Source of the DNA: a phage
DNA: 49,713 nt
Direction: 5' to 3' (one strand)
Sequence record: NC_130088.1
The notes beneath the pieces are model-generated. The model was not told where the DNA came from. It made no database searches and was given only the letters and a program-made list of their open reading frames with translations. Of this stretch, positions 6,382 through 42,321 are shown in pieces; position 1 is the stretch's first letter; the number at the start of each line of letters is the position of its first letter. The position numbers and the translations under genes were made by a program.

Positions 6382-6430
6382 CGTGCTAACACAAAAAACA
6401 CTTGAACGTTTAACAAAAAATGCTATATTA

Positions 6431-6454
6431 AAGCCGTTATTGTGACGGCTTTTC
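6431..6454 (+). terminator. Hairpin GCCGT..ACGGC plus TTTT
   Basis: Dyad plus T-run before capsid gene. Confidence 0.4.
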
Positions 6455-14914: not shown

Positions 14915-15633
14915 TTAATGCAAAAATTAAACTTGAAATTATGCGACACGCTAATGATGTTTATCCTAATGAATGTTGCGGCCTGGTAACTCAAAAATCA
15001 CGCGTCCAGAAATATCACCGGATCGATAACGTAAGCAAAGAGCCGGAAAAGCATTTTGAAATGGACGCGACACAATACGCAGAGGTTGAGGATAGCGGCG
15101 CGGATATTATCGCCATAGTTCACAGCCACACAGGGGAAGGGGCAACAACAATCCCTAGCGCACACGATTTGTGCATGTGTGATGAAACTGGTGTTTCTTG
15201 GGTTATCGTTTCGATACCAGAAGGAGACATGAGAATCATAGAGCCACAATCACGGCCTTTGATTGGTCGCCCCTGGTCGCTTGGTGCTTATGATTGTTGG
15301 GGTCTTATTATGGCATGGCATAAAGAGCAAGGCGTGATCCTGAATGATTTCCGCAAGCAGTATGAATGGTGGAAGCCGGAACATGGCGAAAACCTTTATC
15401 AAGATAATTACTTGAAAGAAGGTTTTATAGAAACAGGTGAACCGCCAAAGCCAGGTGATATGATCATAATGCAGTTGCAAGCGCCAGTATGGAACCACGC
15501 CGGAATTTATTTAGGCAACAATCAACTATTGCATCATGCATTCGGCAAGTTGTCGCGAGTTGATTTATATTCTGGATGGTATCAGGAACACACAACAATG
15601 ATTTGCAGACATAAGGATCTGAAAAATGAATAA
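14911..15633 (+). CDS. Tail assembly protein K (MPN/JAMM plus NlpC/P60-like)
   Basis: HSHT..H..D metal motif and Cys/His peptidase-like C-terminal half; ATGA overlap with L. Confidence 0.75.
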   Translation: MINAKIKLEIMRHANDVYPNECCGLVTQKSRVQKYHRIDNVSKEPEKHFEMDATQYAEVEDSGADIIAIVHSHTGEGATTIPSAHDLCMCDETGVSWVIVSIPEGDMRIIEPQSRPLIGRPWSLGAYDCWGLIMAWHKEQGVILNDFRKQYEWWKPEHGENLYQDNYLKEGFIETGEPPKPGDMIIMQLQAPVWNHAGIYLGNNQLLHHAFGKLSRVDLYSGWYQEHTTMICRHKDLKNE

Positions 15634-16257: not shown

Positions 16258-16306
16258 TTACATGTACAATGGCAGCACGTTTAAATAGCACAAAAGGTTA
16301 AAAGCT

Positions 16307-19300
16307 ATGATCAAAAATATGATAACTGGCAGTAAGGGCGGTTCTTCAAAGCCTCATACACCTGTTGAAATGGAAGATAACCTAATTTCAATTAACAGGA
16401 TCAGAATTCTTTTAGCTGTTTCTGATGGTGAAGTTGATCCAGACTTTTCATTGAAAGATTTATATTTTGATGACGTTCCGGTTATGAATCATGATGGTTC
16501 ACTAAACTTTCAGAATGTTAAGGCAGAATTCAGACCAGGGACGCAAACGCAGGATTATATTCAGGGGTTTACTGATACAGCCAGCGAAATTACAGTTGCT
16601 CGCGATCTGACAGCCGCAACGCCTTATATTATTTCCGTGACTAATAAAAACCTTTCCGCGATCCGTATTAAAATTTTAATGCCGCGAGGGTTTACGCAGG
16701 AGGATAACGGAGATTTAACAGGCGTTCGCGTTGAATATGCAGTTGATATGGCTATTGATGGCGCTGAATATAACGAGGTTTTGCATGATGTGATCGAAGG
16801 TAAAACAATGAGCGGTTACGACAGAAGCCGCAGAATTGATTTACCTGCTTTCAATGAGCGTGTTTTATTGCGCGTTCGTCGCCTGACAGACAGCACGTCA
16901 GCGAGAGTTACCGATCTGATTAAAATGCAAAGCTATGCGGAAGTTGTAGACGCTAAATTTCGTTACCCATTGACTGGTTTAGTATATGTTGAGTTTGACA
17001 GCGAATTATTCCCTAATGCGTTGCCGAATATCAGCATTAAGAAAAAATGGAAAATCATTAATGTTCCGTCAAATTATGATCCTATTTCCCGCACTTATTC
17101 AGGGTCATGGGATGGAACATGGAAAAAGGCATGGAGTAATAACCCTGCTTTTGTTCTGTATGATTTGATTACCAATCAGCGTTACGGACTCGATCAAAGA
17201 GAATTAGGCATCGCGCTTGATAAATGGAGCATTTACGAATGTGCGCAGTATTGCGATCAGATGGTTCCAGACGGTAAAGGCGGAACAGAGCCGCGCTATC
17301 TTTGCGACGTTGTGATCCAGAGCCAGGTAGAAGCGTATCAGCTTGTGCGTGATATTTGTTCAATCTTCCGTGGAATGAGCTTTTGGAATGGTGAGAGCCT
17401 TTCAATCGTGATCGATAAGCCTCGCGATGCGTCATACATCTTTACTAATGACAACGTGGTTAACGGCGATTTCAGCTACACGTTTGCCAGCGAGAAAAGC
17501 ATGTACACGCAATGCAACGTGACTTTCGACGACGAACAAAACATGTATCAACAGGACGTTGAGGGTGTTTTTGAAACAGAGGCAGCGTTACGTTTTGGAT
17601 ATAACAGTACGTCAATAACTGCTATCGGTTGCACACGACGCAGCGAAGCCAACCGCCGTGGACGCTGGATTTTAAAAACCAACGTCAAGAGCACAACAGT
17701 AAACTTTGCTACTGGCCTGGAAGGTATGATCCCAACGGTAGGCGATGTAATTGTTGTTTCGGATAACTTCTGGTCAAGCGCTTTGACGCTGAATCTATCA
17801 GGTCGATTGATGGAGGTTAACGGGTTGCAGGTGTTCACGCCGTTTAAGGTTGACGCAAGAGCAGGTGATCGCATTCTGGTAAATAAGCCGGATGGTAAGC
17901 CAGTTGGTCGAACCATTGCGCGTGTGAGTGATGACGGTAAAACGCTAACGCTAAACACGACATTTGGCTTTGACGTTCAGCCGGATACCATTTTTGCAAT
18001 TGAGCGAACAGATATTGCACAGCAACGATATGTTGTAACCGGAATCACTAAGGGTGACGGTGATGAAGAATTTACCTACAACATAACGGCTGTTGAATAC
18101 GATCCTAACAAATACGATGAAATTGATTATGGCGTAAACATTGATGACCGTCCGACTTCAATCGTGCAGCCTGACATTTTGCCAGCACCGCAAAACGTCA
18201 AGATCGAATCTTATTCGCGAGTTGTTCAGGGTGCGAGCGTGGAAACAATGCACGTTTCATGGGATAAGGTTGAATATGCAAGCCTTTATGAAATGCAGTG
18301 GAGAAAAGACAATGGCAACTGGAACAACACGCCGCGCACAGCCAACAAGGAAACGGAAGTTGAAGGTATTTACGCAGGAAACTATCACGTAAGGGTTAGA
18401 TCTGTTGCAGCTAATGGTTCAGCGTCTGGATGGTCAGCAATTGTTAGCGCCGGATTAACTGGCAAAGTTGGCGAGCCAGAAAAGCCGATTAACCTTACAG
18501 CGTCTGACAATGAGGTTTTCGGCATTCGCGTAAAATGGGGTATGCCGGAGGGTTCTGGTGATACAGCTTACATAGAGTTGCATCAAGCGCCGAACGGTGC
18601 TGATGGTCATCCTATTGTTGATGAAGCAACGCTCTTAACGCTGATACCGTTCCCGCAATATGAGTATTGGCATTCAATACTGCCAGCGGGTCATGTTGTC
18701 TGGTACAAGGCAAGGGCAGTTGACAAAATCGGGAATGTGTCTGATTGGACTGACTTTGTGCGCGGCATGGCTTCCGACGATACGAGCATTATCACGGATC
18801 ATATTAAGGTCGATATTGAAAATTCTGATGGATATAAGTGGTTACAGGAAAACGCAATAAAGGCCAATGATAAGATCCACAGCACAGCGGAATCAGTGAT
18901 TGAAAACGCATTAGCGAATGATAAAGATGTGCGACGTATGCGAGTTGAAAACGGCAAGCGTAAAGCGGAGTTCTTGCAATCGCTGAAACTCATTGCAGAC
19001 GAAACAGAAGCAAGGGTAACGCAGGTCACTCAAATGAGTGCGCAATTTGACGAGAAATTAACGGCTCAAAATAGCGAATTGAGAGAGGTAATTGCTAACA
19101 GCACTGAAACCATTAGCCAAAGGATTGATCAGCTTACAGCTACGTTTGAGAGCGAAATTGATGGTGTTAAGCAGGATATCAAAGCACAGATAACTGATGT
19201 TAACCAGGCAATCACCAATGAAGCGGAAGCGCGAGCGTCAGCGGATAGGGCGTTATCAACTCAAATTGGTGATACCCAATCAGCGGTTAACCAGAAACTT

Positions 19301-20083
19301 GATTCATGGGTTAACGGTACAAGCGTTGGTGCGATGTACGGCGTTAAGTTGGGGATCAGGTATAACGGGCAGGAATATAGCGCAGGCATGGCGCTTTCTC
19401 TTGTCGCTGATGGTGGAGGAGTTAAATCACAATTCCTGTTTGATGCTGGACGATTCGCGATCATCAACAATGCTCAAAGCGGAGCCTTTACATTGCCGTT
19501 TGTAGTTGAGAATAACCAGGTGTTTATCAATAGCTTGCTTGTGAAAAACGGCTCTATTGGAAATGCTCAGATTGCGGATCAGATTAACTCTAACAACTGG
19601 CAGAGCGGCGCGGCTGGATGGATGATTAATAAGAATGGTTATGCTGAATTTAACCAGATAACGGTAAGGGGTACGGTGTACGCAAACGCCGGATCATTCA
19701 CTGGTAACGTTTACGCTACAGATGGTTGGTTTAGGGGTACTGTTTACGCTGAAAAAATTGAGGGTGACGTTGCAAAGGCTGTTGTTCTTCCGTTTAACGG
19801 ATCGGTTCACATTCCGGCGGTTAACTACAACAGACATCTTGTGATCCCTTATGTTGGTATTCATGGGTACACATATTCAGGTGGTACATGGGGCGGCGGT
19901 ACTGTTTGGGTTGATTCAACATATGGCGGTCGCCTTGCTAACGTTCAGGCAACTGCAATGCATGGCGGATCAAGTGGTTATGTTCTGTTGCCAGCAGGTA
20001 ACGCAACTACGCTTTCATATGGTGGAAATCTAAACCACGCAAACGCAGTACCGATCTTAACAGTTCTGCTATTCAAAGCATAA
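16307..20083 (+). CDS. Tail tip / host specificity protein J-like central fibre
   Basis: 1258 aa directly after M-L-K-I; Gly-rich C-terminal receptor-binding-like region. Confidence 0.85.
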   Translation: MIKNMITGSKGGSSKPHTPVEMEDNLISINRIRILLAVSDGEVDPDFSLKDLYFDDVPVMNHDGSLNFQNVKAEFRPGTQTQDYIQGFTDTASEITVARDLTAATPYIISVTNKNLSAIRIKILMPRGFTQEDNGDLTGVRVEYAVDMAIDGAEYNEVLHDVIEGKTMSGYDRSRRIDLPAFNERVLLRVRRLTDSTSARVTDLIKMQSYAEVVDAKFRYPLTGLVYVEFDSELFPNALPNISIKKKWKIINVPSNYDPISRTYSGSWDGTWKKAWSNNPAFVLYDLITNQRYGLDQRELGIALDKWSIYECAQYCDQMVPDGKGGTEPRYLCDVVIQSQVEAYQLVRDICSIFRGMSFWNGESLSIVIDKPRDASYIFTNDNVVNGDFSYTFASEKSMYTQCNVTFDDEQNMYQQDVEGVFETEAALRFGYNSTSITAIGCTRRSEANRRGRWILKTNVKSTTVNFATGLEGMIPTVGDVIVVSDNFWSSALTLNLSGRLMEVNGLQVFTPFKVDARAGDRILVNKPDGKPVGRTIARVSDDGKTLTLNTTFGFDVQPDTIFAIERTDIAQQRYVVTGITKGDGDEEFTYNITAVEYDPNKYDEIDYGVNIDDRPTSIVQPDILPAPQNVKIESYSRVVQGASVETMHVSWDKVEYASLYEMQWRKDNGNWNNTPRTANKETEVEGIYAGNYHVRVRSVAANGSASGWSAIVSAGLTGKVGEPEKPINLTASDNEVFGIRVKWGMPEGSGDTAYIELHQAPNGADGHPIVDEATLLTLIPFPQYEYWHSILPAGHVVWYKARAVDKIGNVSDWTDFVRGMASDDTSIITDHIKVDIENSDGYKWLQENAIKANDKIHSTAESVIENALANDKDVRRMRVENGKRKAEFLQSLKLIADETEARVTQVTQMSAQFDEKLTAQNSELREVIANSTETISQRIDQLTATFESEIDGVKQDIKAQITDVNQAITNEAEARASADRALSTQIGDTQSAVNQKLDSWVNGTSVGAMYGVKLGIRYNGQEYSAGMALSLVADGGGVKSQFLFDAGRFAIINNAQSGAFTLPFVVENNQVFINSLLVKNGSIGNAQIADQINSNNWQSGAAGWMINKNGYAEFNQITVRGTVYANAGSFTGNVYATDGWFRGTVYAEKIEGDVAKAVVLPFNGSVHIPAVNYNRHLVIPYVGIHGYTYSGGTWGGGTVWVDSTYGGRLANVQATAMHGGSSGYVLLPAGNATTLSYGGNLNHANAVPILTVLLFKA

Positions 20084-20096
20084 AAGGAGGTAAATC

Positions 20097-20135
20097 AATG
20101 CCCTGGCTTAACGGTCGGGGCATTTGTTTTCTTTT
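20097..20135 (+). terminator. Putative terminator after J (stem AATGCCC/GGGCATT plus T-rich tail)
   Basis: 7-bp stem, 14-nt loop, TGTTTTCTTTTG tail. Confidence 0.35.
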
Positions 20136-20487
20136 GTTCCATGATGTTCACAACTTAATCCGGCGTAAAATTGAAAACGTCTTGATAACAAAAAGAACAA
20201 ATGAAATATCTATATAATAACATACACTTAGAGTTTAATTATTATTATATATATCTATTTGTATTCTTCTTGTTTCTATTGTTCTCTATGGTTTGTGGTT
20301 GTTGTGTGTTTTGTATTGGTTGATGGTTATATATCACATGGTATGTATTTATATATGGTATGCGGCGTAAATGCGTGAACAATGTAACACAAAAACAACA
20401 ATCAGTAAAATCATAAACTTACGATGTGATTTTGTTGTCAGTGCCTACTTTGAACGTATGCAAAACAAAAAGAACACATAAAACATA

Positions 20488-20515
20488 TTGACTACATGAA
20501 ACATTCGCATATAAT
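20488..20515 (+). promoter_or_regulatory. Near-consensus sigma70 promoter TTGACT-16-TATAAT (early promoter A)
   Basis: Hexamers read directly; A-rich UP-like tract upstream; precedes the exonuclease gene. Confidence 0.7.
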
Positions 20516-21599: not shown

Positions 21600-21600
21600 A

Positions 21601-21642
21601 TAGCACTTTTTGCTAAAACAGCCATTCGATGCGTGGTATACT
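21601..21642 (+). promoter_or_regulatory. Conserved 19-bp box plus -10-like TATACT (class-2 promoter-like unit)
   Basis: TAGCACTTTTTGCTAAAAC, 21-nt gap, TATACT. Confidence 0.5.
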
Positions 21643-21674
21643 ACACGCATCAACCAACAAGAGAGGAAATAAAA

Positions 21675-21965
21675 ATGGAACAGCAATTCAATGAACAAGA
21701 CACTCAAGACGTGCGCGATCATGTAGGCGGATTTGTAAGCGCATTAGGCATTATGCAACGCCAGTTCTTACGAGTAATTGATCCAAGCGAATCACCGGAA
21801 ACTCTTGAATACGTTCGCAAGGTTGCATATTCGATTGATAGCGTTGTGTTAACAGTTCTTCAAATGGAGAATAACGAAGAACACCGCAAGATGATTAATC
21901 AGGCAAGTGAAATCATGATCCAGAATTTGATTGATTATCACAACGAGAACAAAGAAAAGCATTAA
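21675..21965 (+). CDS. Hypothetical protein
   Basis: 96 aa from ATG after AGAGAGG SD. Confidence 0.4.
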   Translation: MEQQFNEQDTQDVRDHVGGFVSALGIMQRQFLRVIDPSESPETLEYVRKVAYSIDSVVLTVLQMENNEEHRKMINQASEIMIQNLIDYHNENKEKH

Positions 21966-22011
21966 TTAACACGGCGGCGCAAGCCGCCATTATTAAACCG
22001 GAGTCAATGAA

Positions 22012-22674
22012 ATGAAATTTTCCGATCAAAACGCAAACGTAATTAAGGCATTGTTTGAGGCGCGTCAGTTATTCACAAAAGTAAAAAAGGATAAGCAAAA
22101 CACGCACCTGAAAAACAAATATGCAACTCTTGACAGCGTTCTTGATGCTATTATGCCTGGCCTTACTGATAAGGGTTTATTCCTTACTCAAGATCAGAAA
22201 GTTGGCGAAGATTTGAAATCAATGACGGTTTTAACTCGCTTCATTCACGTTGAATCAAATGAATGGGTTGAATATAGTTTCACGTTGCCAATGCAGAAAT
22301 TAGATCCGCAAGGTGGCGGCTCAACAAACAGCTATGCGAGACGTTATGCACTTTGTACCGCTCTTGGACTGGCAACAGCTGACGATGACGCAAATCTTGC
22401 CACCAAAAACGCGCAGGATTGGAAAAAAGATCTTGATGCTTGCGATAACCTTACAGACTTGCAAGAAACGTTTAAAACGGCTTACAAGCAATCTGACGCA
22501 GCAAACCGCCGAATCATTAAAGAGCATTACGACAAGCTGAAAGCAAAAATGGAAATCGGAAAGGCTCGTGGTTTTAATCCGGCTGAACCAGCGGCAAATG
22601 TTGCGAAGAATGAAAAAGTTGAAAACAAACCGCAACAGGAAGTAAAATCACAGTCTATCACTGACTTTGAATAA
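22012..22674 (+). CDS. Erf-like single-strand annealing protein (probable)
   Basis: 220 aa between exonuclease and SSB; sequence pattern consistent with the Erf family as recalled. Confidence 0.5.
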   Translation: MKFSDQNANVIKALFEARQLFTKVKKDKQNTHLKNKYATLDSVLDAIMPGLTDKGLFLTQDQKVGEDLKSMTVLTRFIHVESNEWVEYSFTLPMQKLDPQGGGSTNSYARRYALCTALGLATADDDANLATKNAQDWKKDLDACDNLTDLQETFKTAYKQSDAANRRIIKEHYDKLKAKMEIGKARGFNPAEPAANVAKNEKVENKPQQEVKSQSITDFE

Positions 22675-22675
22675 T

Positions 22676-22706
22676 TTATCGCGGGGCGATAACGCCCCGA
22701 TAAGGA
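22676..22706 (+). promoter_or_regulatory. GC-rich hairpin (CGGGGCG..CGCCCCG) directly upstream of the SSB ribosome-binding site
   Basis: Perfect 7-bp GC stem with ATAA loop, no T-run after it. Confidence 0.35.
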
Positions 22707-22712
22707 AATAAA

Positions 22713-23138
22713 ATGCACGTAATCACCGGAGAAATTCGCAAAGAGCCATTTGTAAAGCAAGGCGCAAACGGCACATTATACATCGTTGAGCTTTCGGAGT
22801 CATTTAAAGATCGTGAAGGTAATCGACAATACACCAATTACAAATTCTTCTTTAATGCTAAAAGCGACGGCATGAATAATTGGTATCGTGAAGCATTTCA
22901 GCAGGGTAAAGTTATTTCTGTATCATGCGATCAGTTACGCATTGATAGCCAGGAATACAACGGGCAGATTTATAACACATTGACGGCGGCGGGCTTTCCT
23001 AATCTTTTATTCAGTCAACGCGGAGAAGGGCAAGCGCCACAACAGCAGCAACCTCGACAGCAACAACAATCGCCACGCCAGCAAGCGCCTCAAAACAACG
23101 AGCCGCCTATGGATTTTGATGATGATATCCCATTCTGA
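22713..23138 (+). CDS. ssb: Single-stranded DNA-binding protein
   Basis: 141 aa; Gln/Pro-rich linker and acidic C-terminal tail MDFDDDIPF characteristic of SSB. Confidence 0.85.
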   Translation: MHVITGEIRKEPFVKQGANGTLYIVELSESFKDREGNRQYTNYKFFFNAKSDGMNNWYREAFQQGKVISVSCDQLRIDSQEYNGQIYNTLTAAGFPNLLFSQRGEGQAPQQQQPRQQQQSPRQQAPQNNEPPMDFDDDIPF

Positions 23139-23140
23139 TA

Positions 23141-23172
23141 AAAGAAAAGGAGCCGAAAGGCTCCTTTTTTAT
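23141..23172. terminator. Bidirectional terminator (AAGGAGCC..GGCTCCTT flanked by A-run and T-run)
   Basis: Between convergent ssb and tail-fibre genes. Confidence 0.7.
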
Positions 23173-25541
23173 TACTTAGCAATCTGAATAAACATTGATT
23201 GCATTTCCTCGATCATCTTTTTCATTTCTGCTACTTCATTTTTTAGCTCATTGATTTCATCTTGTTGCTTCTGAATGGTTTCATTCTGCTTATCTGAATC
23301 ATCAATCATTTCATTAATTGCGTTAACCAAAAGAGCAGTTACACCGCCATAGCTAACACCTAAATATTCTGAATCTGAAATCTTGTAAACCGCTTCCGGT
23401 AAAACAGTTTGCACGTCTTGAGCTATTACACCAGCCTCCTCAGAATAGAAAGAATATTCATCTTCATCAAGATTGTTGCGCTTAAAATAAGTGTAACCTT
23501 TTATTGATTTCACTTTTTCTTTAGCGCTTTCAATCTCTTTTAGGTTTGCTTTCAGGCGAATATCGGAAGTGTTAACCCATTGCACAGCAGACGCATAACC
23601 AGCATCGTTAAACCCATAAACAGCGCCCCTTACATTAAAATGAGCCTCGCAACCTCCAGCGCTATATCTGACAACATCAAGACCAGCAGCCCAATCGCCA
23701 CCCCATCGAACAACCTTAAAGACGTTTGCGGCAGCATCATCACCAGGTAACTCAACAAGAAGGCCGCAAGCACGATCGCGCCAAGCATCCCAACCTCCAG
23801 CGGCAATCTGACCACCAATTAGCGCATTACCGCCGCCAGTTCTAGCACCTGAAACTCTAATGCCGTTAGCGTTATTATCAACAGGCCATATATTTAAAAG
23901 TCCGTTAAGGTGCATGTTTTGAGCATCGAATGAAGACACATTTCTACCGTTGCACATTACTTGCAAAATGCCATCACCGCCCCACTTAAAGCCTGTATCA
24001 GTGTCACCAATTACTAACGCATTACTTCCAAGCGCATTACCAATACCCCTACCGATAACTATTGAATTGTAATTTAGCGCGTTGCCACTTTCATCAAACT
24101 GATAATAGTTTGTGTCGCCACCTTCTCTAGTTACTTGAATAGTTGCCTTTGCAATCCCACCCTGAATTTCGTTGTAAATTCTTGAGTATGAAAGCTGTAC
24201 ATTTTCTGGACTTTTGTTTATTAAATAAAGAATTCCAGAGTTTGCAGAGTTTGCAGAGTTTTTTTCTGTTAGGCTTATTCCTCTAAAAACAGGAATGTCA
24301 GTTTCACCAATGCCAAAGTTATTCCTTGCTTGGCTTACGTTTGCTGCACCTGTGCCGCCCTGTAGAATTCCAAGAGGAATATACTGTTGCGATGCGATAT
24401 TCCAGTAACCCCAACCATCGTTACCAACTGTAAGGTATTTGATCTTATCCGGCGACCGAATAAACGTTTCACCATCGCCCTGATCAAATCGGTCAATCTG
24501 GAAATTAATTCTTGCTTGCGTTACGTTTTCCGCACCAGTACCGCCAGCACCAACAGAAAGAGCGGATGTGCTGTTATCGCTATTTCTTGCAACTCGCCAC
24601 TCGCCGTTGTTTGCGATCCGTAATTCATAAGTCCATGCAGGGTTACGAAATGAGTTATAATCACCTGGATTTTGACCCTTAACTGAATTAACAGCCTCAA
24701 CTTTCAGCGCCTCCCTTGCTAAATCTTTATTAGCAAGATCATTAAGATTCTGATCCTTATGCAGAAGGTTTTCAGGGTTAACTTGTTGTGCCCATTGGCG
24801 AGCTTCATCACGCGCAGTTTCAGCGCCTTGTTTAGCGTTTCCGGCTGCAACGTTTGATTGTTCAGCGGCAAGTTGTGATTCCTTTGCTGCATCGCGAGCA
24901 TTAACAGCCTCGTTTTTAATTGATCCAATTTCAGCAACGGCGCTATCTTTTATTTGTTGCGTCTGCGTTTTTATTGCGTCAGTGTCTGCCTTAATCTGAT
25001 TGGTTTCATTGACGGCAGCATCCTTAATCTGTTGAGTTTCTGCAATCGCAGTATCTTTAATTTGCGTAGTCTCAGAAACAGCGGCATCCTTAATAGCTTG
25101 CGTGTCGTTTTTTAATTGCTCAGTTGCGGCGCGATCTGCATCCGTTTTTTGTGCGGAAGACTCAGCGCGAGCAACAAGATCCTGTAATGTTTTAAGGTCA
25201 AAGTTTTTGAAGAATTCAATTGCTTCCTCAATAACCGTTTCTTTACTTTGGTAATATCTCAGCGTTTCCGCTACATCTTGCGCCATTCCATCGACAGTTA
25301 GCGAGTCATTCAACAGGATTACATAATTTCCGTTTGCTACTGGCTCGCCGTCAGTCTGGATCGCTTTCATTTCCGTGTCGCTTACAATATCGCTGATAAC
25401 CGCCAGCTTTAAAGGCGTGGTTAAAAAAACGATTGTTGCGCCAGTGCGAATAAGAGAAAGCGGCTCACGCCATTTTGTGCCAGTACCAGTGATAACGCCT
25501 TGTGCGTCCATTGCAGCCGTACCAGTGCGATATAAAGCCAT
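23172..25541 (-). CDS. Tail fibre protein with C-terminal intramolecular chaperone (S74-like) domain
   Basis: 789 aa; N-terminal anchor, repeated IKDxAVxET coiled-coil units, Gly-rich beta-helix-like region, C-terminal SDIRLK... chaperone-like block. Confidence 0.75.
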   Translation of the reverse strand: MALYRTGTAAMDAQGVITGTGTKWREPLSLIRTGATIVFLTTPLKLAVISDIVSDTEMKAIQTDGEPVANGNYVILLNDSLTVDGMAQDVAETLRYYQSKETVIEEAIEFFKNFDLKTLQDLVARAESSAQKTDADRAATEQLKNDTQAIKDAAVSETTQIKDTAIAETQQIKDAAVNETNQIKADTDAIKTQTQQIKDSAVAEIGSIKNEAVNARDAAKESQLAAEQSNVAAGNAKQGAETARDEARQWAQQVNPENLLHKDQNLNDLANKDLAREALKVEAVNSVKGQNPGDYNSFRNPAWTYELRIANNGEWRVARNSDNSTSALSVGAGGTGAENVTQARINFQIDRFDQGDGETFIRSPDKIKYLTVGNDGWGYWNIASQQYIPLGILQGGTGAANVSQARNNFGIGETDIPVFRGISLTEKNSANSANSGILYLINKSPENVQLSYSRIYNEIQGGIAKATIQVTREGGDTNYYQFDESGNALNYNSIVIGRGIGNALGSNALVIGDTDTGFKWGGDGILQVMCNGRNVSSFDAQNMHLNGLLNIWPVDNNANGIRVSGARTGGGNALIGGQIAAGGWDAWRDRACGLLVELPGDDAAANVFKVVRWGGDWAAGLDVVRYSAGGCEAHFNVRGAVYGFNDAGYASAVQWVNTSDIRLKANLKEIESAKEKVKSIKGYTYFKRNNLDEDEYSFYSEEAGVIAQDVQTVLPEAVYKISDSEYLGVSYGGVTALLVNAINEMIDDSDKQNETIQKQQDEINELKNEVAEMKKMIEEMQSMFIQIAK
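24236..24260 (-). repeat. In-frame 9-bp tandem repeat (CAGAGTTTG x2.8) encoding NSANSANS within the tail-fibre gene
   Basis: Direct reading. Confidence 0.8.
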
Positions 25542-25582
25542 AATTTCACCTCATAGCATTTTTTGTTAAAATAGGTCATGTA

Positions 25583-25611
25583 ATTATGCTACAGCCATTT
25601 GTTACATGCAA
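25583..25611 (-). promoter_or_regulatory. Sigma70-like promoter TTGCAT-17-CATAAT for the tail-fibre gene
   Basis: Read on minus strand; GAGGTG SD follows. Confidence 0.55.
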
Positions 25612-25634
25612 TAAAAAACCCCGCCGAAGCGGGG
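25612..25634 (-). terminator. Rho-independent terminator (CCCCGC..GCGGGG plus T-run on minus strand) after the primase gene
   Basis: Perfect 6-bp GC stem, A6 on plus strand. Confidence 0.65.
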
Positions 25635-25701
25635 CATCGTTAACGACAACGAGAAGTCAATGAAACAGATTCATCGAAAAGTGTTAGTAGCAGGATGAAT
25701 A

Positions 25702-26628
25702 TTATAATAAGTCACTTGCCTTGTAAAGCCTCCGCTCTATTCCATTTTTGAATTTACCGTTAATTGGTAACATTACGTCTAATTCGCGATCATCAGCAGC
25801 AATCAAAGTATCGCGATCATTAGCATGGCACACAACGCGCATTTTGCGATCACCTTTGTAGCGATACGCTACTATTTCAAGATTCGACGCAGAAAAACAA
25901 GCCCACACCTCTTGTCCAGTTGCCAAGTGGATGTGTTGCGCATCAATCCAATCAACGCAAAGGTAAATTGTTTTGTCAGTCTTGCCAGTTACTGCAACAG
26001 AGCCTCGCGTATAATCCTTAGCGTAAAAACTGCTTTGACCTTCCTCATTGACGAAAAGAATATTACACATATCATCGTCCAATTCATCACTATGCACTAG
26101 GTGGCAAGGAATGGCGTGAATATGTTCGCAATATCCGTTGTCGTGAGTTTTTACGCCAACTTGATACGATTCGCCGCCTAATGGATAAAACGCCTCAAAA
26201 ACGCTTAGATTTGTTATTTCCATGCGTTCAGTTTTATCCATAACCTCAACACATTTTTCATGAGTTGCTTGCGATCCGAAATTGTAACCGGAGTCACGTT
26301 TTGCCGCTTTGTTAGCCTTGTTGACAACCTCAACCGGAACCAGGTTTAACCATTCGCCTAGAGTGTCGATTGCTTCACTGTAATTTTCACCACGTATGCG
26401 CATGAATAATCCGATCCCTGAATCATTCCCGCATTGGTTGCAAATGTTGCCGCCGTCGCCTTTCTCGTTGATTTTGTCCGTCCATCTGAAACGGTCTTTA
26501 CCTCCACAATAAGGGCATGGTTGATGCTTTCCGTTAAAGGTTAATTGAGGAATATCACAAAGTTTCATCAATGCCGCTTGCCACATTCCGCGCATCTTTG
26601 GGATCACTTCTTCTTTCTGGTAATGCAT
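25702..26628 (-). CDS. DNA primase (zinc-ribbon plus TOPRIM-like)
   Basis: CPYCGG..C..C zinc ribbon at N-terminus, acidic DxD-like motifs later; GGAGG SD. Confidence 0.6.
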   Translation of the reverse strand: MHYQKEEVIPKMRGMWQAALMKLCDIPQLTFNGKHQPCPYCGGKDRFRWTDKINEKGDGGNICNQCGNDSGIGLFMRIRGENYSEAIDTLGEWLNLVPVEVVNKANKAAKRDSGYNFGSQATHEKCVEVMDKTERMEITNLSVFEAFYPLGGESYQVGVKTHDNGYCEHIHAIPCHLVHSDELDDDMCNILFVNEEGQSSFYAKDYTRGSVAVTGKTDKTIYLCVDWIDAQHIHLATGQEVWACFSASNLEIVAYRYKGDRKMRVVCHANDRDTLIAADDRELDVMLPINGKFKNGIERRLYKASDLL

Positions 26629-26645
26629 TTCTCAACCTCCAAATA

Positions 26646-26676
26646 AAAAAACCTGGCACGATGATAAACCATGCCA
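26646..26676 (-). terminator. Terminator hairpin (CCTGGCA..TGCCAGG) with T-run on minus strand
   Basis: Dyad plus A7 on plus strand. Confidence 0.55.
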
Positions 26677-26687
26677 GGCCGGAATTT

Positions 26688-27296
26688 TTAGCAATCAGTG
26701 CTATCGACGGAAATCACAACGCGTTTCTTCTGATTGGCTTCCTTTGCTTTGCGCCGTTCTTCTTTCGCCTTATCGCGTTCAGCTTTGCGCCGCGCTTTCT
26801 CCTTCTCGCGTTCTTCTGGACTCATAGACCGCAACGGATCGTAAGGCCGCACAAATCCTCTTGCTTCCGCCTCCTCTTTGGTTACAAATCGCATCAGCTT
26901 TCTGTTGCTGCAACGATTCTCTAATGGCTTGCCGTTATTATCAAATTTGATATCTGGACGGCAATATGAAGCGCGGAAGCCGTTAAAACCTTTGCGTCTG
27001 TAATCTTTCTGGATCAGTTCAGCGCCTTTAGTTGAAATCATGCCGCGCTCTTTCCATCCCCATACTGTTTTAAGGTTAACGCCAATTTCACGCGCCAGGG
27101 CAGCGCAACCGCCATAAGCGCTAACCACTTCATCAAGCCTAGCTTTTAATCCTGCCCTTACTTCTTCCTTTAGTACCAGATAACCGCTAACAGGTGCGCG
27201 GCGCTTCCTGTCTTTACCACGCCTTACGCCGTTGTTACCATTGATTGTGCGTTTGTCGATTTCTCCCGTTGAGGCCGCAATTTTGATTTCGCTCAT
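26688..27296 (-). CDS. HTH DNA-binding protein with basic Lys/Arg/Glu-rich C-terminal tail
   Basis: HTH-like segment GGCAALAREIGVNLKTVWGW; AGGTGA SD; divergent from helicase gene. Confidence 0.45.
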   Translation of the reverse strand: MSEIKIAASTGEIDKRTINGNNGVRRGKDRKRRAPVSGYLVLKEEVRAGLKARLDEVVSAYGGCAALAREIGVNLKTVWGWKERGMISTKGAELIQKDYRRKGFNGFRASYCRPDIKFDNNGKPLENRCSNRKLMRFVTKEEAEARGFVRPYDPLRSMSPEEREKEKARRKAERDKAKEERRKAKEANQKKRVVISVDSTDC

Positions 27297-27307
27297 ATTT
27301 TCACCTA

Positions 27308-27349
27308 TAGCACTTTTTGCTAAAACTATTGAGTAAGTTTGTGTATGAT
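27308..27349 (+). promoter_or_regulatory. Conserved 19-bp box plus TATGAT (class-2 unit) upstream of helicase
   Basis: TAGCACTTTTTGCTAAAAC, 21-nt gap, TATGAT. Confidence 0.5.
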
Positions 27350-27384
27350 ATGGTGCAAATGGCATTTAGTCAAAAGGATAAGTA

Positions 27385-29358
27385 ATGATTCCTAACATTG
27401 AAAAACAGATTGAAGAACTTGGAGCGGAAAAGATAAAGGCAATACAAAAACGCTTCACAGTTGGTGAAATTGTGCCTTACGAATATCAATGCGTTGCATA
27501 CGTTGAGATCGCAAAGCGTTTAAGCCGTTATGAACATCCGTTTTTTGTTAAGGCGGCTGTATCGGCAGGTAAAACAATCATCTTTGCTATGGTTGCGGCT
27601 CAGTGCCGTAAAATGGGGTTGAAAGCGTTATTTCTGGCGCGTCAATCTGAAATTGTGGATCAGGATTCAAAAGAGATTAGCGCCTTTGGTGTTCCGAATT
27701 CCGTTTATTGCGCTGGCCTGAATACCAAAAGCGCTTATTTCCCGATTGTTGTCGGATCGGAAGGCACTGTAATTGGTGGATTGAATAAAGCGTTGGGTGA
27801 TTACGTCCCGCAAGTTTTAGGTATAGACGAATGTCATCAAGTCAACTGGAATGATATTGTTGAAGCCGAGGAAAACGGCGAAAGCATAGAGCAAATGATG
27901 ACACCGAAAGGTGAACCAGTTGAAGGCAATCCGTTGCTGATTGGTTCAGGCCGCGCACAATACACCATTATCATTGCAGAAATGCGCCGCCGTTGTCTTG
28001 AGACTTACGGTCATCAGTTGCGTATATTTGGAATGACCGGATCTGAATATCGCGGAATTGAGCCGATACTTGTCGAAGATAAAAGAATTCCTGGGTTTTG
28101 GCGTGAGCAGATCACAAACATTGATACTGATTACCTGGTAAAATTTGGTTCAGTTGTTCCCACTTATTTTGGCAATGTTGGTGATTTGGGTTACGACTTA
28201 TCAGAATTTACGCCAGTGAATGAATTTGGCGTTGCTGATTATGACCAGAAGCAATTAAAGGCCATGAGTGACAAGATTCACCAATCAGGAACCATGACGC
28301 AGAAAATAATGCAGATGGTTCACGAGGTGATGAAAAACCGCTTGTGCGCTCTTGTTACTTGCGCTGACGAAAGGCACTGCAAAGAGGCGGCGGCGGCGCT
28401 TCCGCCTGGCACGAAATATCACATTATCACCGGAAAAACTGGAGAGAAACAGCGGCGCTTATGGCTTGAGGATGCATATGAAGGGCGCGTTAAATACATC
28501 TTCCAGGTTCAGGCGCTAACAACTGGCGTGAACGTTCCTCCGTGGGATACTTCTGTTATTTTGCGCAAGATCGGAAGCCTGACGCTATTAACTCAGCTTT
28601 TGGGGCGCGGTATGCGTCAATTAAAAACTTACCATAAAGAAGTATTGGGAATGCACAAAACAGATCATCTTGTTTTGGACTTTTCCGGCACGATGTTTGA
28701 AATGGGTAATTTGTATTTCGATCCGATGTTAGAGCAAGCGCAATTCCAGTTACGTAAATCACAGGACAAAGATCCGAAATATTGCCCGATTTGCGGTACA
28801 GAAAATTCATTCTATGCTCGCCGTTGCATTAATGAGGATGAAAACGGAAATCGTTGTGAACATTTCTGGACGTTCCAGGAATGTGAGGATCAGATTGATG
28901 ACCGCACAAAGAAAGTTATTGTAAAAGGTTGCGGCGCAAAAAATGACGTTGCGGCGCGTGTATGCCGTTGCTGTAATGTTCAGTTACGCGATCCAAATGA
29001 TAACTTATCCGGCAAGATGTACCGTAAAAACGATTGGTGCGACGTGTTAGATTTTAATGTGACGCTGACAAAAAACCAGGCTGGCGTAATATTCTGCTAC
29101 ACGTTACGTGATAGTGGCGGCGTAGAATTCAGGGCATACGAAAAATATTTCCCTGAATCAGAACACAAGATATGTAAAACGCTTTGGACAAAGGCGGTTA
29201 GAACACATGTTATAGATCGCCAAGCCGCAAACTTTATGATCACTTGCCGCAATGCAATTAAGATCATGAGTTATGCGGGGCAAATATTGCCGCCAAAACG
29301 TGTTACCCATCGCAAGAACACAAAGAAAGAAGATTTGATCGCACAGAAGGAGTTTTAA
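27385..29358 (+). CDS. SF2 (DEAD/DEAH-like) helicase with C-terminal zinc-ribbon motifs
   Basis: Walker A SAGKT, DECH box, CxxC..CxxC clusters near C-terminus. Confidence 0.75.
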   Translation: MIPNIEKQIEELGAEKIKAIQKRFTVGEIVPYEYQCVAYVEIAKRLSRYEHPFFVKAAVSAGKTIIFAMVAAQCRKMGLKALFLARQSEIVDQDSKEISAFGVPNSVYCAGLNTKSAYFPIVVGSEGTVIGGLNKALGDYVPQVLGIDECHQVNWNDIVEAEENGESIEQMMTPKGEPVEGNPLLIGSGRAQYTIIIAEMRRRCLETYGHQLRIFGMTGSEYRGIEPILVEDKRIPGFWREQITNIDTDYLVKFGSVVPTYFGNVGDLGYDLSEFTPVNEFGVADYDQKQLKAMSDKIHQSGTMTQKIMQMVHEVMKNRLCALVTCADERHCKEAAAALPPGTKYHIITGKTGEKQRRLWLEDAYEGRVKYIFQVQALTTGVNVPPWDTSVILRKIGSLTLLTQLLGRGMRQLKTYHKEVLGMHKTDHLVLDFSGTMFEMGNLYFDPMLEQAQFQLRKSQDKDPKYCPICGTENSFYARRCINEDENGNRCEHFWTFQECEDQIDDRTKKVIVKGCGAKNDVAARVCRCCNVQLRDPNDNLSGKMYRKNDWCDVLDFNVTLTKNQAGVIFCYTLRDSGGVEFRAYEKYFPESEHKICKTLWTKAVRTHVIDRQAANFMITCRNAIKIMSYAGQILPPKRVTHRKNTKKEDLIAQKEF

Positions 29359-34204: not shown

Positions 34205-34237
34205 TTTGAATTTCCTTTTGTTCGTTTCGATGAAACA

Positions 34238-40020: not shown

Positions 40021-40051
40021 CGTTAATCTCCTGATTGGTTTCGATGGGGTA

Positions 40052-42290: not shown

Positions 42291-42321
42291 TACCCCATCG
42301 AAACGAAACGAGGAAAACACA

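Follow-up and report, generated by a model that had tools for sequence, protein, structure and literature searches.

The window analysed here, a stretch of 49,713 nucleotides, contains a minus-strand gene for a 789-aa tail fibre that lies apart from the tail genes and carries its own transcription signals. The original prediction took its layout for that of an exchangeable host-range cassette, and the question raised by this locus is what exactly is exchanged: the whole promoter-to-terminator unit, or parts of the gene. The window matches Citrobacter phage vB_CfrD_Devorator (Drexlerviridae, Tlsvirus) at 100%, and we assign a probability of about 0.88 to the reading that the feature is the ordinary, already annotated lateral tail fibre of this T1-like phage, at the family's usual place. 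The locus and the fibre architecture are already known from the BASEL papers, the gene is annotated, and its hypervariability has been published for the family. The alignments presented below indicate that the unit of exchange is patches inside the open reading frame (ORF), not the whole promoter-to-terminator cassette.

The fibre gene and its place in the genome

23172..25541, minus strand: lateral tail fibre gene, 789-aa ORF with ATG start; GenBank gp27
25547..25552, minus strand: Shine-Dalgarno sequence GAGGTG, 5 nt 5' of the ATG; 0 of 6 columns vary in 13 Tlsvirus genomes

The predicted 789-aa fibre gene agrees with both the ORF and a match of its product to PHROG 5481 'tail fiber protein' (E 5.7e-280). 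In the GenBank entry for gp27 the start is annotated 10 codons too late; the ATG at 25541 is supported by the Shine-Dalgarno sequence and by the MA(L/I)YR N-termini of relatives, which are found at 35 of 36 related loci and also in PDB 7VYV. The neighbours are Erf and SSB on the plus strand and primase and a regulator on the minus strand, which places the gene between the recombination and replication modules as had been proposed. Composition gives no sign of foreign origin, with a GC content of 0.42–0.43 across the fibre gene versus 0.37–0.47 in the rest of the window.

For comparison, 36 related loci were fetched. The fibre gene adjoins SSB in 35 of them, and the Devorator gene order is kept in all except three of Webervirus, a genus in which the exo-Erf-SSB block is inverted and the fibre or depolymerase gene stands differently relative to the block. 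The position is fixed in T1, TLS, Rogunavirus and Hanrivervirus (the same place in T1, TLS and at least 30 other loci), and the Drexlerviridae layout, with the fibre between the recombination genes and primase, has been published (PMC8594841, S1C Fig). The content of the locus varies among relatives from 1 to 5 genes, and some loci hold anchor-only stubs of 115–118 aa.

Transcription signals of the fibre unit

23145..23168, both strands: hairpin of a bidirectional intrinsic terminator, AAAAGGAGCC-GAAA-GGCTCCTTTT, common to the convergent SSB (plus) and fibre (minus) genes
25618..25635, minus strand only: upstream intrinsic terminator 3' of the primase gene, GCCCCGC-TTCG-GCGGGGT, then T5ATT
25583..25611, minus strand: predicted sigma70 promoter; -35 TTGCAT (25606–25611), 17-nt spacer, -10 CATAAT (25583–25588)

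A bidirectional terminator had been proposed for 23141–23172, and the hairpin found there has a U-tract on both strands. Folding gives -18.4 kcal/mol (z -5.1) on the plus strand, where U6AUU comes next, and -16.1 kcal/mol (z -3.0) on the minus strand, where the terminator scan counts 10 pairs and UUUUCUUUUAU comes next; the hairpin lies between an A-run and a T-run (about 23140–23178). Counterparts of this SSB/fibre terminator are annotated in phage Stevie and T1. The terminator/promoter pair proposed for 25583–25634 was likewise recovered. Its terminator (-17.6 kcal/mol; 7 pairs, 6 of them G-C, then TTTTTATT) is without a U-tract on the plus strand, has a T-tract (25609–25617) that extends into the -35 hexamer, and has an annotated equivalent in Stevie. 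This primase-side terminator would insulate the fibre unit. An Rfam scan of 22900–25900 gave only sub-threshold matches, produced by the terminators. All elements of a self-contained minus-strand unit, in the order terminator, promoter, gene, terminator, are present.

The predicted promoter matches the consensus at 8 of 12 positions and falls under the promoter-scan threshold. Its hexamers do not vary at any of these 12 positions in 13 Tlsvirus genomes, while 7 of 17 positions vary in the spacer and 20 of 39 downstream; the spacer differences separate two alleles. This conservation footprint supports promoter function. The analogous fibre promoters of other genera have TGnTAAAAT or TGCTATTAT extended -10 elements and are better than that of Devorator. 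The claim that the fibre has its own sigma70-like promoter rather than a class-2 box is retained for a predicted promoter with invariant hexamers, and the gene indeed lacks a sense-oriented repeat box.

Regulator, primase and fibre all lie on the minus strand, a promoter matching 10 of 12 positions was found by the scan upstream of the regulator gene (27373–27345), and the Webervirus fibre is likewise co-directional with its upstream genes. Together with the 8-of-12 match of the fibre promoter, these observations would fit a fibre gene that lacks a functional promoter of its own and stands last in a leftward operon of regulator, primase and fibre, where partial read-through of two internal terminators would express it. 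We consider this arrangement unlikely, as the hexamers and their 17-nt spacing are kept while nearby bases diverge, a strong GC hairpin with a U-tract stands immediately upstream of the fibre promoter, better promoters occupy the equivalent place in other genera, and T1 late genes have been described as terminator-flanked 'transcriptons' (PMC11447400).

An inverted copy of the 21-nt repeat

About 25553..25572, plus strand: the 21-nt repeat of Drexlerviridae in inverted orientation; consensus aaATAGCACnnnTTGnTAAAA, here ATAGCATTTTTTGTTAAAA, which differs once (T for C)

The antisense box foreseen in the fibre 5' UTR is thus present in near-consensus form. The repeat has 22 copies in the window, and a search with the fibre-leader copy as query (at most 3 mismatches) gave 14 matches versus 0.11 expected by chance. 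This copy lies antisense to the fibre, 12–30 nt from the ATG and at about +5 to +24 of the predicted transcript, and it departs from the usual arrangement in the family, in which the box runs along transcription about 76 nt before the start codon and 17–18 nt before a -10-like hexamer. No -10 was found beside it on the plus strand at that usual spacing. An antisense plus-strand transcript into primase, driven by the inverted box, was rejected because a -10-like hexamer is missing at 17–18 nt (ACAGCC/TACAGC in Devorator, ATACCT in T1). A role as second fibre promoter is unlikely in Devorator, in which TGCTATGAG overlaps the Shine-Dalgarno sequence. T1 and Rogunavirus have TGCTATTTA at 18 nt from the Shine-Dalgarno sequence on its 5' side, and there such a role is plausible. 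This inverted copy also occurs in the fibre leaders of T1, Rogunavirus and locus L029, and is absent from those of the TLS/Stevie allele, Hanrivervirus and Webervirus.

As a side observation that may be new, inverted copies are located in the promoter regions of late genes, those of the fibre and the major capsid protein. At the major capsid gene (promoter at 6402–6429 in the window), a good sigma70 promoter has its spacer and extended -10 formed by the inverted repeat in 5 of the 6 sampled genera, and in the fibre leader (about +5 to +24) this orientation is found in Tunavirus, Rogunavirus and part of Tlsvirus; in sense orientation the repeat is placed at about -49 to -31 in some 18 promoters of the early and middle classes. 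It is a speculative and rather doubtful possibility that the repeat is a two-way regulatory site, at which one putative box-binding factor would activate one promoter class and restrain the late capsid and fibre genes as a temporal switch. The function of the repeat in T1-like phages is a published open question, for which the inverted copies offer a concrete, testable handle. A literature search by box sequence gave nothing relevant, and the papers on the repeat were located by word search.

Domains of the fibre protein

25176..25541, minus strand: N-terminal virion-anchor domain, aa 1–122; the sole part of the protein conserved across Drexlerviridae
24762..25175, minus strand: α-helical coiled-coil shaft, aa 123–260; 11-residue (33-nt) repeats of the form xQIKDxAVxET
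23565..24761, minus strand: distal shaft and receptor-binding part, aa 261–659; two GGTGAxNxxxAR repeats
23673–24032, minus strand: hypervariable tip patch, aa ~504–623, from the mosaic maps
23175..23564, minus strand: C-terminal intramolecular chaperone Peptidase_S74, aa 660–789, with a coiled coil at the end; from Pfam and PDB matches

The architecture of anchor, coiled-coil shaft, distal receptor-binding part and chaperone is shown by homology at the sequence level. The anchor has 66–100% amino acid identity across all 36 loci, including 66% to T1 (gp26) and 69% to KP36 (gp50), and it matches Webervirus depolymerases with 65–69% identity (PDB 7VYV/7VZ3/7LZJ, E ~1e-49); PMC10581125 uses the name 'N-terminal anchor domain' for it. 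When the 122 residues of the anchor were searched against a database, just 19 short fragments (87–204 aa) came back, and the survey of C-termini was drawn from the 36 loci and Pfam scans. Among these relatives the same anchor carries C-termini of the Peptidase_S74, Phage_tail_C_2, depolymerase and unassigned types.

The coiled-coil repeats are visible in the translation as well as in a repeat search, in which family D9 has a 33-nt spacing at 24991–25106, and went undetected by Tandem Repeats Finder since the copies are too divergent. The length of this segment in relatives is 414, 381, 348, 330 or 297 nt. For the distal part, an AlphaFold2 model is β-rich, with pLDDT 80–92 for residues ~435–550. 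The chaperone is recognised by Pfam PF13884 at residues 659–719 (50.6 bits, cut-off 22) and matches PDB 6F45, gp37 of phage S16, with E 1e-17 when searched as a single sequence and 3e-29 as a profile. Its cleavage motif NTS/DIRLK has Ser 659 followed by D660-x-R-x-K, as in Peptidase_S74 chaperones, and the S, D, I, R and K of the motif are nearly invariant in an alignment of 88 sequences. Autocleavage of the fibre is predicted between Ser 659 and Asp 660 by analogy to these chaperones.

Exchange inside the reading frame

Compared at the same junction, relatives do not carry an identical gene free of signs of exchange: of about 25 Tlsvirus relatives, just 2 have nearly the same fibre gene. The Devorator distal allele recurs in UTK0006 and Supreme284 alone, and both still differ at residues ~414–493. 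Within the fibre ORF the relatives differ by replacement patches of 90–700 nt, at which the divergence jumps from 0% to about 40%, and the recurrent patches cover residues ~114–183, 224–253, 324–413, 504–623 and 754–789. SorkZaugg, for example, is identical to Devorator at residues 1–333 and 634–789 and 43–45% divergent between, while phSE-5 is identical at residues 1–173, 184–333 and 634–789, with the same 43–45% divergence between residues 333 and 634.

Sequences similar to the distal modules are found well outside the genus. The backbone of the Rogunavirus phage SRT8 is 50–61% identical to that of Devorator, yet residues 441–658 are 86% and the chaperone 90% identical. Over the distal three-quarters of residues 261–789, identity to the T5-like Salmonella phage UTK0010 is 78%, and fibres with a lambda-Stf-type N-terminus (PF08400), on 57–61-kb contigs, are 60–62% identical to the distal module. 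By these likenesses, the distal modules are common to other genera and families, including T5-like phages.

That the whole unit from promoter to terminator moves as a mobile cassette, swapped or gained and lost in one piece at this junction, is very unlikely, and this reading is largely refuted. Its own promoter and flanking terminators make the unit self-contained, the Webervirus fibre/depolymerase retains the terminator-promoter-terminator frame despite its different placement versus exo-Erf-SSB, and the gene content of the locus is variable, as described above. However, when Tlsvirus genomes are compared, the hexamers of the promoter, the Shine-Dalgarno sequence and codons 1 to ~113 track the flanking genes at 87–100% identity, apart from small divergent patches. 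Tracts of divergence on the 3' side often cross the terminator and reach into the 3' end of SSB. The breakpoints mapped against 11 relatives all lie inside the fibre ORF or SSB, and none coincides with either of the two terminators. Furthermore, the anchor is at least 66% identical at every locus, whereas the distal parts are sometimes without detectable similarity. The original description as an exchangeable host-range cassette therefore stands in so far as the unit is self-contained and the fibre gene is the host-range hot spot of the genome, and fails as to the unit of exchange, since the breakpoints fall in the ORF and SSB.

Exchange of patches inside the ORF can be drawn as a fine map, in which the anchor (residues 1–113) is fixed and the patches at residues 114–183, 324–413, 504–623 and 754–789 are swappable. 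For Tlsvirus phages of Citrobacter, Salmonella and E. coli, it shows the natural splice points at which host range could be engineered.

Proposed function of the fibre

In the mechanism that we propose, host RNA polymerase would start at the weak, conserved sigma70 promoter directly after the primase terminator and produce a monocistronic mRNA of ~2.4 kb with a 35-nt unstructured leader, which would stop at the terminator common to the convergent SSB gene. The chaperone, to judge from its family, would drive trimer folding and then cut itself off at S659/D660. By analogy to relatives, the fibre would form part of the virion, take a surface glycan (O-antigen or LPS) as its primary receptor and make the first, reversible contact with it, and the J protein, with its C-terminal extension, would bind the terminal receptor, probably TolC. 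Host range is shown to evolve by homologous recombination between short patches inside the ORF. The homology arms are the conserved anchor region at one end and, at the other, the chaperone domain or SSB. TLS Gp55 is a 78-kDa structural protein of the virion (PMC11447400), the CRES7/9 fibre of Drexlerviridae, which has the same chaperone-type architecture, sets the O-serotype range (PMC12090712), and the U136B orthologue of the fibre gained mutations during adsorption evolution (PMC10304864). For Drexlerviridae in general, the role of the O-antigen was described as 'never directly demonstrated' (PMC8594841).

That the protein is an enzymatic tailspike (depolymerase) or a terminal-receptor binder and not a non-enzymatic lateral fibre is highly improbable: Webervirus capsule depolymerases (PDB 7LZJ, 7VYV) ride on the same anchor, but Pfam and PHROGs give no β-helix or lyase/hydrolase domain in the 789-aa protein, in which a coiled coil is followed by fibre repeats and then the chaperone, its distal part has homologues among the fibre tips of T5-like and T4-like phages, and terminal-receptor specificity maps to J in close relatives, with gene 52 mutated in 5 of 5 evolved U136B isolates (PMC10304864) and a C-terminal extension on J in TolC phages (PMC8594841).

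Comparison with known systems

As regards transcription signals, the Devorator fibre unit resembles the T1 'transcriptons', which are terminator-flanked and have an RpoD-type promoter, as Roberts et al. 2004 are cited in the TLS and Stevie papers. Its box fits the published repeat consensus of T1-like phages. The published 21/22-nt repeats run along transcription (all 18 intergenic copies in TLS, predominantly in Stevie), whereas the copy in the Devorator fibre leader is inverted.

Like lambda Stf/Tfa, the Devorator fibre belongs to an accessory, losable type with modular recombination and distal parts found across phage families. A separate gene for a Tfa chaperone is absent, since the fibre protein includes its own chaperone, and, unlike lambda Stf, the fibre gene is detached from the tail operon and lies on the opposite strand. 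The Webervirus (KP36-like) depolymerases KP36 gp50, RAD2 DpK2 (7LZJ) and GH-K3 Depo32 (7VYV) have a homologous anchor and a gene that adjoins SSB; their distal part, unlike that of Devorator, is a β-helix depolymerase without chaperone, and owing to the inversion of exo-Erf-SSB the gene runs in the same direction as SSB and converges with J.

T5 pb1, the K1F endosialidase and S16 gp37 share with Devorator a C-terminal Peptidase_S74 chaperone with the start motif SD(I/V)R(L/M)K, and the Devorator distal part is 41–78% identical to fibres of T5-like Salmonella phages. No direct match in sequence or fold between the Devorator fibre and T5 pb1 (4UW8) was obtained. It differs from these chaperone fibres in its N-terminal anchor and its coiled coil, both of them Drexlerviridae-specific. 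Within that family, the same 'coiled coil plus T5-like tip plus chaperone' architecture has been described for phage JakobBernoulli (PMC11990801). The closest system is the Drexlerviridae lateral tail fibre locus itself (T1 gp26/ST26, TLS Gp55, BASEL Bas01-13; Maffei et al. 2021), for which position and fibre architecture have been described (PMC8594841, PMC11990801). It has the same position and strand and, as in Devorator, a conserved 5' end with a hypervariable remainder; nothing essential differs, and it is the distal allele that is specific, being shared by UTK0006 and Supreme284 alone.

Identity of the genome and start of the fibre gene

Region 22000–27500 of the window matched Citrobacter phage vB_CfrD_Devorator (OL539461.1; Drexlerviridae, Tempevirinae, Tlsvirus) at 100% over its full length by megablast, and window coordinates at the fibre locus equal those of the record plus 7. 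The Devorator genome was published among 22 T1-like phages (PMC9119101). The fibre locus is already known for Drexlerviridae, and the GenBank entry for the gene, gp27, is named 'tail fiber protein' and runs for 779 aa from a second ATG, 10 codons downstream of the ATG at 25541 (25511–25541). We assign the start to the upstream ATG, giving 789 aa, because it follows a conserved GAGGTG Shine-Dalgarno (25547–25552, without variation in 13 Tlsvirus genomes) and opens a family-wide MALYR N-terminus, which recurs in 35 of the 36 loci compared (15 from GenBank records, 21 from IMG/VR contigs) and agrees with residue 1 of PDB 7VYV. Within the recombination module, the 110-aa gp24 (21633–21965, plus strand), which has its own box promoter (21600–21642), is annotated 'tail length tape-measure protein'; no Pfam match supports this name, which was probably carried over during annotation.

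Organization of the minus-strand block

Every element listed in the original prediction (ORF, two terminators, promoter and box) was found in the sequence.

Features of the minus-strand block
23172..25541, minus: fibre gene ORF, 789 aa
23145–23168, both strands: bidirectional terminator hairpin, U-tract on each strand
25618–25635, minus only: upstream terminator hairpin
25606–25611 (TTGCAT) and 25583–25588 (CATAAT), minus: candidate fibre promoter, 17-nt spacer
26650–26680, minus: terminator hairpin ending the regulator gene, -19.8 kcal/mol
26686–26704, minus: sense box upstream of the primase gene
27373–27345, minus: regulator promoter, 10/12 consensus

Folding of the hairpin at the fibre 3' end (plus strand -18.4 kcal/mol, z -5.1; minus strand -16.1 kcal/mol, z -3.0) together with the U-tracts bears out a terminator acting on both strands. 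The candidate fibre promoter agrees with the consensus at only 8 of 12 positions, and a generic promoter scan omits it. When 13 Tlsvirus genomes were aligned, 0 of the 12 hexamer positions varied, as against 7 of 17 in the spacer and 20 of 39 between the -10 and the Shine-Dalgarno, a conservation footprint such as a functional promoter would leave. The 5' UTR occurs as two alleles in Tlsvirus. The block as a whole reads as three insulated units, for regulator, primase and fibre. The regulator terminator includes the primase -10 (TATCAT) within its loop and stem, so that terminator and promoter overlap (26650–26704). Read-through from the primase unit is a less probable rival source of fibre transcription than the predicted start. 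The favoured arrangement, with a terminator followed within about 30 nt by a promoter and then by the fibre gene, is present in every genus examined with differing promoter sequences, namely TTGC(A/C)N, 17 nt, TGnTAAAAT in T1 and Rogunavirus and TGCTATTAT in Webervirus and Hanrivervirus. Such a layout is in keeping with the 'transcripton' concept put forward for T1 (cited in PMC11447400).

Architecture of the fibre protein

The whole protein matches the PHROGs family 'tail fiber protein' (E 5.7e-280). Residues 1–122 form an anchor domain common to all Drexlerviridae fibres (66–100% identity in 36 loci), which is 65–69% identical to capsule depolymerases of Webervirus with solved structures (7LZJ from phage RAD2, 7VYV and 7VZ3 from phage GH-K3); the depolymerase structure papers term this segment the N-terminal anchor. 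A coiled coil of 11-residue repeats, coded by 33-nt DNA repeats and varying in length among relatives, spans aa ~123–260, and aa 261–659 comprise two GGTGAxNxxxAR fibre repeats and a β-rich distal part. Pfam Peptidase_S74, the intramolecular chaperone of endosialidases, matches aa 659–719 (50.6 bits, cut-off 22). The domain extends into a coiled coil at the C-terminus and aligns with its counterpart in phage S16 gp37. From the chaperone family, self-cleavage is predicted at NTS659|D660-IRLK.

Mosaicism and the unit of exchange

The fibre gene adjoins SSB in 35 of 36 loci, the exception (L036) being rearranged. Devorator gene order is kept in Tlsvirus, Tunavirus (T1), Rogunavirus and Hanrivervirus. 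The exo-Erf-SSB block is inverted only in Webervirus, and the fibre/depolymerase gene therefore follows SSB on the SSB strand. Some relatives carry 1–4 additional genes 3' of the fibre; others have only an anchor stub of 115–118 aa, as in contigs L022 (6001–6345), where the frame stops early but further fibre segments can be recognized beyond the stop, and L026 (6001–6354), where the remainder is deleted. Short anchor-only 'tail fiber' proteins of 150–200 aa are common in the protein database.

By tblastn, the whole fibre protein is at least 95% identical in only one other record. Across Tlsvirus, by contrast, the neighbouring genes for Erf, SSB, primase and regulator share 88–100% identity, and conservation is similar (87–100%) towards the 5' end of the fibre unit, in the promoter hexamers and first ~113 codons. 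In pairwise maps divergence jumps abruptly from 0% to ~40% within the ORF, in recurrent patches at aa ~114–183, 224–253, 324–413 (frequently an indel of one fibre repeat), 504–623 and 754–789. SorkZaugg is identical to Devorator at aa 1–333 and 634–789, and phSE-5 at aa 1–173, 184–333 and 634–789; both are 43–45% divergent in between. Devorator departs by 10–17% at aa ~414–493 even from its two nearest relatives, Salmonella phage UTK0006 and Citrobacter phage Supreme284. This patch (24063–24302) is Devorator-specific, with 0% divergence from either phage on both sides. Divergent chaperone alleles accompany a divergent SSB 3' end in ElisaCorrea, Stevie, YSP2, Henu4_2 and DanielBernoulli, and exchange tracts therefore cross the terminator.

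Distal modules evidently move between lineages. The backbone of E. coli phage SRT8 (Rogunavirus) is only 50–61% identical to that of Devorator, but its fibre reaches 86% at aa 441–658 and 90% in the chaperone; at 78% identity, the fibre of the 113-kb T5-like Salmonella phage UTK0010 matches the distal three-quarters of an aa 261–789 query; and contigs of 57–61 kb carry the distal module (60–62% identity) behind a lambda-Stf-type N-terminus (PF08400). Elsewhere the same anchor is joined to Phage_tail_C_2 (T1), a depolymerase (Webervirus) or domains without assignment.

Relatives thus carry a strongly mosaic gene rather than an identical one free of exchange. These comparisons show that domain-sized patches inside the gene are exchanged, with the conserved anchor and either SSB or the chaperone domain as homology arms. 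The original prediction of an exchangeable host-range cassette, accurate in its observations, was right on function and variability; it erred in taking the whole cassette as the unit exchanged.

The 21-nt repeat and its inverted copies

The box is the published 21/22-nt repeat of TLS, Stevie and T1 (consensus aaATAGCACnnnTTGnTAAAA), described as of unknown function (PMC11447400, PMC4319613), and has 22 copies in the window. With the fibre-leader copy as query, 14 matches were found at up to 3 mismatches, 0.11 being expected by chance. About 18 sense copies precede a -10-like hexamer at a constant 17–18 nt. The box thus covers about -49 to -31, where it evidently stands in for a -35 element. 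The only published spacing is about 76 nt from repeat to start codon.

Examples of sense copies
Plus strand: 21600, 27307, 29765, 31089, 42247, 45206, 47698
Minus strand: 34263, 37107, 39258, 40077, 40587

The hexamers often carry TGn, and many copies have a hairpin between box and -10 or around the -10, sometimes the terminator of the upstream gene. A short conserved motif, CATCGAAAC(G/C/T)AA, occurs in 5' leaders after many box promoters, ~10 nt before the Shine-Dalgarno (42291–42302; 34222–34233 and 40036–40047, both minus). A degenerate sense copy, ATAGCACAAAAGGTTAAAA (16285–16303, plus; 25021–25039 in T1, L014), abuts the start codon of the tail-tip protein gene J (gctATG) with no room for a promoter in Devorator or T1, and may supply a ribosome-binding site.

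Two copies in the window are inverted, each before a late structural gene.

Inverted copies and the capsid promoter
25553–25571, plus: inverted copy before the fibre gene
6408–6426: inverted copy before the major capsid gene
6402–6429, plus: capsid promoter, TTGAAC, 16 nt, TATATT, found by scan with TG motif
15068–15086 in T1 (L014): capsid inverted box

The antisense copy predicted in the fibre 5' UTR is present and near consensus. It has the same relative place, just past the predicted start, in T1, two Rogunavirus loci and contig L029; the TLS/Stevie leader allele, Hanrivervirus and Webervirus have no such copy, so fibre expression does not depend on it. Before the capsid gene, the inverted box supplies both the spacer and the TGn-extended -10 of a good sigma70 promoter, with equivalents in T1 (TTGACG-16-TATTAT), tonijn, CJ19 and Sushi and none in phiEB49; sampling of 6 Drexlerviridae genera thus showed the arrangement to be conserved in 5. 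A small hairpin (6431–6453) directly follows this promoter and would lie at the mRNA 5' end. No description of the inverted arrangement was found in the searchable literature, and this observation is the sole part of the analysis with some novelty. We hypothesize, rather than conclude, that the repeat might be functional in either orientation.

Comparison with receptor-binding systems of relatives

JakobBernoulli (Drexlerviridae) has the same architecture of coiled coil, T5-like tip and chaperone as the Devorator fibre (PMC11990801). In a Drexlerviridae fibre of this chaperone type, two residues switch Cronobacter O-serotype range (PMC12090712), and TLS Gp55 is a 78-kDa structural protein (PMC11447400). 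The U136B orthologue, gene 57, carried K688N in 3 of 5 evolved isolates, and J (gene 52) was mutated in 5 of 5 (PMC10304864). K688 falls in the region equivalent to the Devorator chaperone domain. E. coli K-12 lacks O-antigen. Populations of U136B on this host acquired frameshifting insertions near the 3' end of gene 57 (PMC10304864).

TolC recognition was assigned by BASEL to the C-terminal extension of J (PMC8594841). Devorator J (16307–20083, 1258 aa) is 94–99% identical to other Tlsvirus J proteins and resembles the TolC-binding J of TLS and U136B. Unlike other Drexlerviridae, which have a separate receptor-binding locus between J and the exonuclease gene, Devorator has no ORF of at least 60 aa in this gap (20084–20495). 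Together with the resemblance of J, this suggests that its terminal receptor is TolC.
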